The notes beneath the pieces are model-generated. The model searched no databases. It was not told the DNA's origin and was given only the letters and a program-made list of their open reading frames with translations. DNA of 64,000 nucleotides from Escherichia coli. Its GTDB lineage: Bacteria; Pseudomonadota; Gammaproteobacteria; Enterobacterales; Enterobacteriaceae. The position numbers and the translations under genes were made by a program. Positions 2,541 through 64,000 of this stretch are shown here, in pieces; position 1 is the first letter of the stretch; every line of letters starts with the position of its first letter. The stretch lies in assembly GCF_022846255.1 (NCBI RefSeq), contig NZ_AP025682.1; one strand, written 5' to 3'.

Positions 2541-4536
<1,996 letters not shown>

Positions 4537-5792: not shown

Positions 5793-5994
5793 TTAATTCG
5801 TAAAACGTGCTACCGATCACATTAAGAAATCAGCGCTTATTTTTTCGCTCCCCGGTATTACGCAATGCGCAGCGAACTCAGGCATACATCAAGCATAGAG
5901 AGGGATTGCAGTTTGCAGCAATCCCTCTTTGCAGACCTTTAATCCGTTGACCGGAGGCGCTAACATAGCGCCTCATTTTTTTGCGGGTGATGAT

Positions 5995-6945
5995 ATGCGT
6001 GTGTTACTGGCTCCGATGGAGGGTGTACTTGACTCTCTGGTGCGGGAATTACTGACCGAAGTTAACGACTACGATCTGTGCATCACCGAGTTTGTCCGCG
6101 TGGTGGATCAACTGCTGCCAGTAAAAGTCTTTCATCGCATTTGCCCTGAGCTACAAAATGCCAGCCGGACACCATCCGGTACGCTGGTGCGCGTGCAGTT
6201 GTTAGGGCAGTTCCCACAGTGGCTGGCAGAGAATGCCGCCCGTGCGGTGGAGTTAGGTTCCTGGGGCGTGGATCTTAACTGCGGCTGCCCGTCGAAAACG
6301 GTTAACGGTAGCGGTGGTGGGGCAACGTTACTGAAAGATCCTGAACTCATCTACCAGGGTGCAAAAGCGATGCGCGAAGCTGTACCGGCGCATTTGCCTG
6401 TCAGCGTAAAAGTGCGTCTGGGCTGGGACAGCGGTGAGAAGAAATTTGAAATCGCCGATGCGGTGAAACAGGCTGGCGCTACGGAGCTGGTAGTACATGG
6501 GCGGACAAAAGAGCAGGGTTACCGCGCGGAACATATTGACTGGCAGGCGATTGGCGAGATTCGCCAGCGGCTTAATATTCCGGTGATTGCCAACGGTGAA
6601 ATCTGGGACAGGCAGAGTGCGCAACAATGCATGGCGATCAGCGGCTGCGACGCAGTGATGATTGGTCGCGGGGCGCTCAATATTCCCAACCTGAGCCGGG
6701 TAGTAAAATATAACGAACCGCGAATGCCGTGGCCGGAGGTGGTTGCTTTGCTGCAAAAATATACCCGTCTGGAAAAGCAGGGCGATACCGGGTTATATCA
6801 CGTTGCGCGGATTAAACAGTGGTTGAGTTATTTGCGTAAAGAATACGATGAAGCAACGGAATTATTTCAGCATGTTCGGGTGTTGAATAATTCCCCTGAT
6901 ATTGCAAGGGCTATTCAGGCAATTGATATCGATAAGCTGCGATAA
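5995..6945 (+). CDS. dusC: tRNA-dihydrouridine synthase C
   Basis: ORF track 5929..6945; start placed at [10 protein letters not shown] (5995); Dus-family TIM-barrel motifs (DLNCGCP) visible. Confidence 0.9.
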
Positions 6946-7332
6946 TAGTGGAATCGCAGTTTATCAGAGACAATGAATCGCTTATTCAGCTTCATCATCT
7001 TGTTGCGCTCCTTTCATGAGCTAAGCCACATATTGCCACTGGCGCAAGGAGCGCGCAGGGGGAGGACAATCGCCTCCTCCCCCTGCACCCCCGGGCTCTG
7101 GCGAACAAAATCGCCGCTGCGCGGTACCTTCAGCTTATCCCCTTCGTCTACCGGGTCGGGCGCGAGGTAACGTCCTTGTAAGACGCGCCCTCAGCCCACA
7201 TCCATGTGGGCTGCCCCGGCCTTCGGGGAACGCTTCAGCGATTTTGACGCCACCAACACCGGAGCTGTTTGCAAATCAAGTACACAAAATATCTAGTTCC
7301 TGACCTGACAACTTATATGCCATATCTGATTT

Positions 7333-62305: not shown

Positions 62306-63661
62306 ATGTTTTCAGAAGTCATGCGTTATATTCTCGACCTCGGCCCTACGGTGATGCTGCCGATTGTCATCATTATTTTTTCTAAAATATTAGGCATGAA
62401 GGCAGGCGATTGCTTTAAAGCGGGTCTGCATATCGGGATTGGCTTTGTTGGCATTGGCCTTGTGATTGGCTTAATGCTGGATTCCATTGGCCCGGCGGCG
62501 AAAGCGATGGCGGAAAATTTCGACCTGAATCTGCATGTGGTCGATGTCGGCTGGCCGGGCTCTTCACCCATGACCTGGGCGTCGCAAATTGCGCTGGTGG
62601 CGATTCCGATTGCGATTCTGGTTAACGTGGCGATGTTACTGACCCGTATGACGCGGGTGGTAAATGTTGATATCTGGAATATCTGGCATATGACCTTCAC
62701 CGGCGCGTTGCTGCATCTGGCAACCGGTTCATGGATGATAGGGATGGCGGGTGTGGTTATTCACGCGGCGTTTGTTTATAAACTCGGCGACTGGTTTGCC
62801 CGCGATACCCGAAATTTCTTTGAGCTGGAAGGAATTGCTATTCCGCACGGTACATCGGCGTATCTGGGGCCGATAGCGGTGCTGGTGGATGCTATCATCG
62901 AGAAAATCCCAGGGGTTAACCGTATTAAATTTAGTGCCGACGATATCCAGCGCAAATTTGGTCCTTTTGGCGAGCCCGTCACCGTGGGTTTTGTGATGGG
63001 ACTGATTATCGGCATCCTCGCGGGTTACGATGTCAAAGGTGTATTGCAGCTGGCGGTAAAAACGGCGGCAGTTATGCTGCTGATGCCACGGGTGATTAAA
63101 CCCATCATGGATGGTTTAACGCCCATCGCTAAGCAGGCCCGTAGTCGTTTACAGGCGAAGTTCGGCGGTCAGGAGTTCCTGATTGGCCTTGATCCGGCGT
63201 TGCTGCTGGGACATACGGCGGTGGTATCGGCAAGCCTGATTTTTATTCCACTCACCATTTTAATTGCTGTTTGTGTGCCGGGTAATCAGGTGCTGCCGTT
63301 TGGCGACCTTGCCACCATCGGCTTCTTTGTGGTGATGGCGGTCGCGGTGCATCGTGGAAATCTGTTCCGCACCTTAATTTCGGGTGTCATCATTATGAGC
63401 ATCACCCTGTGGATCGCGACGCAAACTATTGGTTTGCACACCCAACTGGCGGCTAATGCGGGCGCGTTAAAAGCCGGGGGTATGGTGGCTTCAATGGATC
63501 AGGGCGGTTCTCCCATTACCTGGTTACTGATTCAGGTTTTCTCCCCGCAAAATATTCCCGGTTTCATTGTTATCGGCGCAATTTATCTTACCGGTATTTT
63601 CATGACCTGGCGTAGAGCGCGTGGCTTTATTAAACAAGAGAAAGCCGTTCTCGCAGAATAA
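62306..63661 (+). CDS. gatC: Galactitol PTS enzyme IIC permease
   Basis: ORF track 62306..63661; polytopic membrane protein, 451 aa. Confidence 0.92.
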   Translation: MFSEVMRYILDLGPTVMLPIVIIIFSKILGMKAGDCFKAGLHIGIGFVGIGLVIGLMLDSIGPAAKAMAENFDLNLHVVDVGWPGSSPMTWASQIALVAIPIAILVNVAMLLTRMTRVVNVDIWNIWHMTFTGALLHLATGSWMIGMAGVVIHAAFVYKLGDWFARDTRNFFELEGIAIPHGTSAYLGPIAVLVDAIIEKIPGVNRIKFSADDIQRKFGPFGEPVTVGFVMGLIIGILAGYDVKGVLQLAVKTAAVMLLMPRVIKPIMDGLTPIAKQARSRLQAKFGGQEFLIGLDPALLLGHTAVVSASLIFIPLTILIAVCVPGNQVLPFGDLATIGFFVVMAVAVHRGNLFRTLISGVIIMSITLWIATQTIGLHTQLAANAGALKAGGMVASMDQGGSPITWLLIQVFSPQNIPGFIVIGAIYLTGIFMTWRRARGFIKQEKAVLAE

Positions 63662-63708
63662 TTTTTACCTGAGGGGGAGGTTATCCCCCTTAACAATCAG
63701 GAGTTTTT

Positions 63709-64000
63709 ATGAAATCAGTGGTGAATGATACTGATGGTATCGTGCGCGTAGCAGAAAGCGTCATTCCTGAAATTAAACATCAGGATGAGGTGCGGGTAAA
63801 AATTGCCAGCTCGGGCTTATGTGGTTCCGATTTACCCAGGATATTTAAAAATGGTGCACATTATTATCCAATAACGTTAGGCCATGAATTTAGTGGCTAT
63901 ATTGATGCGGTGGGATCCGGTGTTGATGATTTACACCCCGGCGATGCGGTTGCCTGTGTGCCGTTATTACCCTGTTTTACTTGTCCAGAGTGTCTGAAAG
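63709..64000 (+). CDS. gatD: Galactitol-1-phosphate 5-dehydrogenase GatD (N-terminal portion; continues beyond window end)
   Basis: ATG at 63709 after SD caggag; MKSVVNDTDGIVRVAE...; zinc-ADH motif GHEFSGY; frame open to window end. Confidence 0.85.
   Translation, partial: MKSVVNDTDGIVRVAESVIPEIKHQDEVRVKIASSGLCGSDLPRIFKNGAHYYPITLGHEFSGYIDAVGSGVDDLHPGDAVACVPLLPCFTCPECLK

Follow-up and report, generated by a model that had tools for sequence, protein, structure and literature searches.

A predicted hairpin conserved between gatC and gatD coincides with an abundant RNA 3′ end in the gat operon of Escherichia coli

At the end of the 64,000-nucleotide stretch of Escherichia coli DNA analyzed here (hereafter the window), the plus strand carries gatY-gatZ-gatA-gatB-gatC-gatD in this order, and the short spacer between the last two genes raises the question of what a G/C-rich inverted repeat is doing in the middle of an operon. 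The spacer occupies positions 63662–63708 (47 nt), in exact agreement with the coordinates of an earlier, sequence-only reading, which had pointed to a G/C stem at this place and proposed that it could modulate gatD translation or mark an mRNA processing site. The identities of the gat genes were taken from RefSeq, as annotated on E. coli sequences that are identical or nearly so, the region 63560–63810 being 100% identical to E. coli Nissle 1917. RefSeq records carry no annotated feature in the spacer, and a combined promoter and terminator scan returned neither a promoter-like nor a terminator-like call in it. An internal gatD promoter was therefore set aside as a candidate, the promoter scan being blank in the spacer.

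Within the spacer, the string gagggggaggttatccccctt lies at 63671–63691, and a repeat search identified in it a perfect 7-nt inverted repeat, AGGGGGA/TCCCCCT, with a 5-nt loop (Table 1). Two further pairs, G63671·U63691 and U63670–A63692, lengthen the predicted stem to 9 bp (−16.0 kcal/mol). The stem starts 8–10 nt 3′ of the gatC stop codon, and the gatD Shine-Dalgarno (SD) sequence starts 6–8 nt beyond it, so that the G/C stem directly upstream of the gatD SD described in the sequence-only reading is confirmed, as a perfect 7-bp repeat. With 7–9 bp, five G–C pairs and a folding energy of −13.4 to −16.0 kcal/mol, the stem is of the kind expected for an intrinsic terminator. The tail that follows it, UUAACAAUC, contains 3 U in 9 nt and is not called by the terminator scan.

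Taken as a single sequence, the hairpin is only mildly unusual. Folding z-scores against dinucleotide shuffles range from −1.4 to −2.0. For the pattern GGGGG-N3-9-CCCCC, the 64-kb window has a single match where 0.11 are expected, and 10 of 100 shuffles contained one or more. An Rfam scan of 63300–64000 gave no family match to the hairpin, and the matches elsewhere in this region, to a snoRNA and a miRNA, were at chance level (E = 0.9 and 4.6).

Table 1. Features of the gatC–gatD spacer and its borders (window coordinates)
Feature	Position	Strand	Basis and remarks
gatC stop codon TAA	63659..63661	+	ORF 62306..63661; RefSeq CDS boundaries in identical E. coli sequences
Optional outer helix, 5′ side CCUGA, pairs with UCAGG 63697-63701	63668..63672	+	Minimum free energy (MFE) fold; E. 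coli-specific, not conserved
Hairpin 5′ arm UGAGGGGGA	63670..63678	+	Perfect part 63672-63678; inverted repeat, folding energy
Hairpin loop GGUUA	63679..63683	+	Holds E. coli strain variants G63680T and T63682A
Hairpin 3′ arm UCCCCCUUA	63684..63692	+	Perfect part 63684-63690; inverted repeat, folding energy
K-12 RNA 3′-end peak	63690..63703 (TRS boundaries); Term-seq 63695, TRS dominant 63698	+	Mapped onto the identical spacer
gatD SD AGGAG	63699..63703	+	5 nt before ATG; orthologues keep GGAG or AGGA
gatD start codon ATG	63709..63711	+	RefSeq gatD CDS start in identical sequences; translation

Within E. coli the spacer is identical to that of the window in 3,477 of 5,077 records and is a single-copy sequence, with a median of one place per genome across 5,076 E. 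coli genomes. Among the 12 strains examined, the G5/C5 core, the SD and the lower part of the stem are free of variants; all of those present alter the loop, the pair that closes it (A63678T), the tail (C63694T) or the number of C in the C run. A separate case is E. coli EP91B (L088, NZ_CP149810.1), in which an IS1A element at 2594–3834 stands in place of the gatC–gatD spacer; similarity to the window ends about 8 nt before the gatC stop, gatD is annotated without its N-terminus, and both the hairpin and the gatD start are lost.

The comparison between species was based on 80 gatC loci, one per species, drawn from a genome collection, in each of which the gatC stop and the gatD start were located. 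Spacers of at least 30 nt occur in 72 of these loci; in 68 of the 72 a contiguous spacer hairpin of −10 kcal/mol or better was predicted, and a bulged hairpin was found in addition to these 68 in locus L019. Among the 59 loci with spacers of at most 60 nt, the stem measures 6–10 bp and the loop 3–6 nt, and the stem begins 2–16 nt (median 5) after the gatC stop. The position is kept while the sequence turns over, 31 different 5′ arms being present among the orthologous hairpins: (U)(G/A)AGGGGGA in Escherichia and C. amalonaticus, GGGGAGC/GCUCCCC in Citrobacter, Klebsiella, Enterobacter and Kluyvera, GCGGGGG/CCCCCGC in Rahnella, CGGGGG/CCCCCG in Erwinia and Pantoea, and CCUAGGG/CCCUAGG in Cricetibacter. 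In Gilliamella the arms GCUUUCACU/AGUGAAAGC are of unrelated, AT-richer sequence and the hairpin is nevertheless kept. Moreover, two compensatory series can be followed through a wobble intermediate, one in Rahnella (G–C in L037, G·U in L035, A–U in L036) and one in Citrobacter and Kluyvera (A–U in L011, G·U in L045, G–C in L025).

These pairings were scored in a loop-anchored alignment of 27 sequences, in which 94.4% of the cells pair and 7 of 8 pairs are changed on both sides; neither the pairing nor the covariation score was reached by any of 500 shuffles, and slid controls paired at 57–66%, figures that lean towards the structure, the alignment being fitted to each sequence's own predicted hairpin. 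An alignment-free control gave a compatible picture: the spacer window folds better than a median of 98% of the 40-nt windows of its own locus and is among the top 5% most stable in 48 of the 72 loci. The loop-anchored alignment had replaced an analysis of 62 whole spacers with MAFFT and RNAalifold, which recovered only three pairs, since aligning by sequence puts the stems out of step with one another. A covariance model of the hairpin (R1, 24 positions) was likewise uninformative, being too short and too palindromic (best E = 0.004, both strands matched); its matches concentrate at the gatC–gatD spacer, and E ≤ 1 is missed by the E. coli hairpin, whose loop has 5 nt. Taken together, the comparative data indicate that the hairpin is real and is kept as an RNA structure across enteric bacteria. 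To judge from the literature searched, its conservation and covariation across species appear not to have been described before.

The element has its limits. Four Pasteurellaceae (L065, L066, L068 and L069), with spacers of 10–22 nt, have no hairpin there, and it is therefore dispensable in that family; the related Cricetibacter (L071) carries a 10-bp hairpin. In two Atlantibacter loci (L029 and L031) no gatD homologue lies within 600 nt downstream of gatC, so that the gene order differs. In addition, the U content after the stem is not conserved and ranges from 0 to 8 of 9 nt. Ten of the 59 orthologues have 6–8 U in these 9 nt and look like genuine terminators; in Leclercia, Silvania and Enterobacter asburiae the hairpin carries the canonical terminator tails UCUUUUUUC, UUUUUUUUC or UUCUUUUUU. 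Tails of the Citrobacter/Klebsiella group have 5–6 U in 9 nt, and those of Rahnella 0–1, with the SD only 2–3 nt after the stem. What is conserved is the G/C stem and its position close behind the gatC stop.

Does an RNA end form at this hairpin in vivo? The spacer of E. coli K-12 MG1655 is identical to that of the window, so that published 3′ ends can be transferred directly (window position = 63661 + (2172921 − x), where x is the MG1655 coordinate). The register of the 61-nt strings that accompany the Term-seq ends was checked against thrL and CyaR, with the thrL coding sequence presumed to end at position 255. In the Term-seq data of Adams et al. 2021, the source of these strings (PMC7815308, Supplementary file 1), a 3′ end classed as primary for gatC maps to 2172887(−), and the RNA ends in CCCCCUUAACA-3′. 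Its average counts in two condition tables, 192,045 and 236,946 reads, are close to those of the end at gatD's own terminator (220,682 and 252,106 reads); for comparison, talB and thrL have 16,186 and 4,852 reads in the same table (PMC7815308). A second data set, that of Bar et al. 2023 (PMC10687069, Supplementary Data 2), places a TRS peak at 2172879–2172892 with a dominant position at 2172884, a signal of 0.9855 and adjusted p values of 0, 2.9e-251 and 6.2e-265, and classes it as "Alternative primary in TU, gatC". The mapped ends lie 3–6 nt after the 9-bp stem and 5–8 nt after the perfect stem. An RNA cut at 63695 or 63698 folds into the 9-bp hairpin with a tail of 3 or 6 nt, and RNAs that end at 63695–63698 do not include the gatD ribosome-binding site. 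In the literature searched, including PMC7815308 and PMC10687069, we found no discussion of the hairpin or of the site, and the mention of gat in a RIL-seq study of small RNAs concerns gatY as a target and not the gatC–gatD hairpin.

One property of the strain bears on these counts. All of the 3′-end data come from MG1655, in which a 2-bp insertion (GG) in gatC, near window position ~63219, creates a premature stop at codon 311 of 452 and leaves the last ~420 nt of gatC untranslated; in the window gatC is intact. Ribosomes in MG1655 do not get as far as the natural stop codon, and Rho-dependent or decay-related ends could be inflated there compared with a strain with intact gatC. The gatD 3′ end of MG1655, at 2171800(−) and outside the window, follows a hairpin CGGGCCAGC...GCUGGCCCG whose U tract, GUAUU, is poor. 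As the tails at gatC and gatD are both poor in U, both major 3′ ends of the gat operon are without a canonical U tract.

We favor, at a probability of roughly 55%, a reading in which the hairpin is a 3′-end-defining element of the gat operon that arrests 3′-to-5′ exonucleases and, in lineages that have a U tract, acts as a partial terminator as well. Exonuclease arrest is preferred because the E. coli arrangement has the signature that Dar and Sorek (2018) described for exonuclease-protective elements, namely a stable hairpin that has no U tract behind it and is closely followed by a Term-seq end (PMC5927463). According to this model, a stable G/C hairpin of 7–9 bp would form from the inverted repeat in the gat mRNA, close behind the gatC stop, and would set a discrete and abundant 3′ end a few nucleotides downstream, ahead of the gatD ribosome-binding site. 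PNPase and RNase II would enter from cleavages in or before gatD, or from the ends of read-through transcripts, and then stall at the hairpin, leaving a stable gatYZABC RNA with a tail of 3–6 nt whose fate is uncoupled from that of gatD. With a run of U behind the stem, as in some lineages, the hairpin would probably serve as a partial intrinsic terminator too. The data establish the sequence of the hairpin, its structural conservation and the 3′ end in K-12 cells; the route by which this end arises and any effect on the gatYZABC to gatD ratio are inferred. What the operon has here is an ordinary RNA end or stability element in its middle and not a new kind of regulator. The operon gatYZABCD is among the 390 operons of the rifampicin screen of Dar and Sorek (table S2), and no gat gene pair is among the 47 operons that were at least 2-fold differentially stable and abundant (table S3; PMC5927463). 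Therefore, a large stabilizing effect in K-12 is not documented; the gatC–gatD pair may have been dropped by the filters applied to each gene pair in that study.

The most substantial competitor is partial intrinsic termination, in which RNA polymerase would stop a few nucleotides past the hairpin in some transcripts and gatD would be transcribed less than gatYZABC. We regard it as possible, although on balance doubtful. In its favor are the GC-rich hairpin, whose stem runs straight into two U, the in vivo 3′ ends 5–8 nt past the perfect stem, the canonical tails of Leclercia, Silvania and E. asburiae and the U-rich tails of the Citrobacter/Klebsiella group; gatD's own mapped terminator is also poor in U, and a gatC end count near that of the gatD terminator would suit roughly 50% termination. 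Against it stand the E. coli tail, which with 3 U in 9 nt fails the terminator scan, the lack of conservation of the U tract, which almost vanishes in Rahnella, and the retention of the gat operon in the table S2 set, which had been filtered in part for internal intrinsic-terminator motifs (PMC5927463). The near-equal counts fit about 50% termination and a near-complete split into two similarly stable RNAs equally well. The latter would also fit a hairpin that, as at papB-papA, protected a 5′ end: RNase E would cut at UAA↓UUUUU after the gatC stop, and the hairpin would shield a separate gatD mRNA. The sequence AA↓UUU at 63660–63664 fits the RN↓WUU motif (quoted in PMC5927463), and a hairpin followed by the SD is a papA-like arrangement. 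However, no 5′-end data were found for the site, the U-rich stretch upstream of the stem is confined to Escherichia, the 3′ end that has been mapped is on the downstream side of the hairpin and not on the upstream side, and the proposed cut would put 8 unpaired nt ahead of the stem. From what is established for 5′ stem-loops, such a leader is longer than is usual for protection, and we consider this route very unlikely. The proposal of an mRNA processing site made by the sequence-only reading is borne out as far as the strong K-12 3′ end shortly after the 9-bp stem is concerned, but that end is also compatible with partial termination.

Control of gatD translation, in which the SD of gatD would stay hidden in the hairpin region until opened by a ribosome completing gatC or by another signal, appears quite unlikely. 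In the isolated spacer, the MFE structure does contain an outer helix that covers the AGG of the SD (Table 1), the SD pairs with the 5′ flank with p = 0.60 in E. coli and with p > 0.5 in 18 of 61 orthologues, most Rahnella included, and a terminating ribosome could, going by its footprint size, melt the 5′ side of the hairpin, the stop codon being close. This helix is nevertheless only 1 kcal/mol better than the plain 9-bp hairpin, disappears from the MFE structure once 20 nt of gatD are added, when the SD bases are 45–81% unpaired, and is absent in E. whittamii, Escherichia sp. E1V33 and C. amalonaticus (p = 0.02–0.04). The SD lies outside the conserved G/C stem, which is not the layout of an SD-sequestering operator, and RNAs ending at 63695–63698 do not carry any gatD SD to be hidden. 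Modulation of gatD translation, as suggested earlier, is accordingly weakly supported at best: a marginal outer helix reaches the SD, but this helix is not conserved and the main stem leaves the SD free. That the repeat is a chance palindrome without function, or a protein-binding site at the DNA level, is highly improbable; the weak single-sequence statistics would suit it, whereas a hairpin at the same place in 68 of 72 species, built from 31 arm sequences with compensatory changes, and an abundant in vivo RNA end at the hairpin speak against it. A DNA-binding palindrome was rejected specifically, as the sequence turns over while the pairing stays, and so was a function on the reverse strand, where an A-rich stretch comes after the complementary hairpin and no convergent gene is present.

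A more speculative scheme, which we hold to be unlikely, is a ribosome-gated switch. Here the ribosome that finishes gatC would hold the 5′ arm open, and the 3′ end, whether made by termination or by exonuclease arrest, would form mainly when gatC is poorly translated; the idea arises because the stem starts so few nucleotides after the gatC stop in nearly every lineage. If it were true, gatD output would be tied to the successful synthesis of a membrane transporter. As a variant of this scheme, the abundant hairpin-ended fragment would be a regulatory RNA derived from the gatC 3′ end.

Returning to exonuclease arrest as the preferred reading, the gat hairpin would function like a known class of elements, hairpins between cistrons by which 3′ ends within operons are formed or protected. 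Like the malE-malF element and the structures of Dar and Sorek 2018 (PMC5927463), it is a stable intercistronic hairpin without a U tract, with a stable 3′ end just downstream, and in common with that class it is conserved as a structure across Enterobacteriaceae. It differs from them in being single-copy and not a REP sequence, and in its downstream gene, gatD encoding a soluble enzyme in place of membrane subunits needed in lower amounts; the gat operon also lies outside the 47 operons with at least 2-fold differential decay (PMC5927463). With the leaky internal terminators that set the stoichiometry of ABC transporters (PMC9045158), it shares a GC-rich stem-loop right after a stop codon and a discrete 3′ end. 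In contrast to these, the U tract is not a conserved feature at gat, several orthologues having a full one and the E. coli copy none. At papB-papA, as at gat, a hairpin lies just upstream of the ribosome-binding site of the downstream gene with an AU-rich candidate RNase E site upstream, whereas the mapped end at gat is a 3′ end downstream of the stem.

REP/BIME elements are extragenic palindromes too and stabilize upstream mRNA. The gat hairpin, by contrast, has no REP consensus, is present in one copy per genome and has a much shorter stem. The same spacer is enlarged by REP/BIME-like palindromes in Buttiauxella agrestis (L010, 3881–4043, 163 nt), which retains a GGGGAGC/GCTCCCC hairpin beside the gatD SD, and in an Enterobacteriaceae metagenome-assembled genome (L076, 3875–3990, 116 nt), for example GCCGGATGGCGGCTTCGCCTTATCCGGCCTAC. 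We take the palindromes of both loci to be REP by their resemblance to the consensus. Such insertions fit a spacer in which RNA-stabilizing palindromes are tolerated or useful.

If the preferred reading is correct, a small conserved RNA hairpin, and not a promoter or a regulator, would set the expression of the transporter block gatYZABC relative to that of gatD, the first cytoplasmic enzyme. The substrate of GatD is galactitol-1-phosphate. Sugar phosphates are toxic, and the balance between transporter and dehydrogenase should therefore matter for growth on galactitol. In mouse-gut evolution experiments, there is strong selection for loss of gat function (PMC5850726). The hairpin would also explain a top-ranked 3′ end of the E. 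coli Term-seq tables that has been published but not interpreted, and in any re-engineering of the gat operon it would be an element to keep or to remove deliberately.

Two further hairpins were met in the course of this work. The only match of the gat-hairpin covariance model in the window (E = 0.82) is a second G/C hairpin, similar in composition, at 7056–7085, GCAGGGGGAGG...CCUCCUCCCCCUGC, about 110 nt after an ORF that ends at 6945, and this hairpin may be a terminator or another stabilizer. In Rahnella rivi (L043), a hairpin at 5868–5891 that also matches the model lies about 2 kb downstream of the gatC–gatD hairpin and may represent the terminator after gatD.
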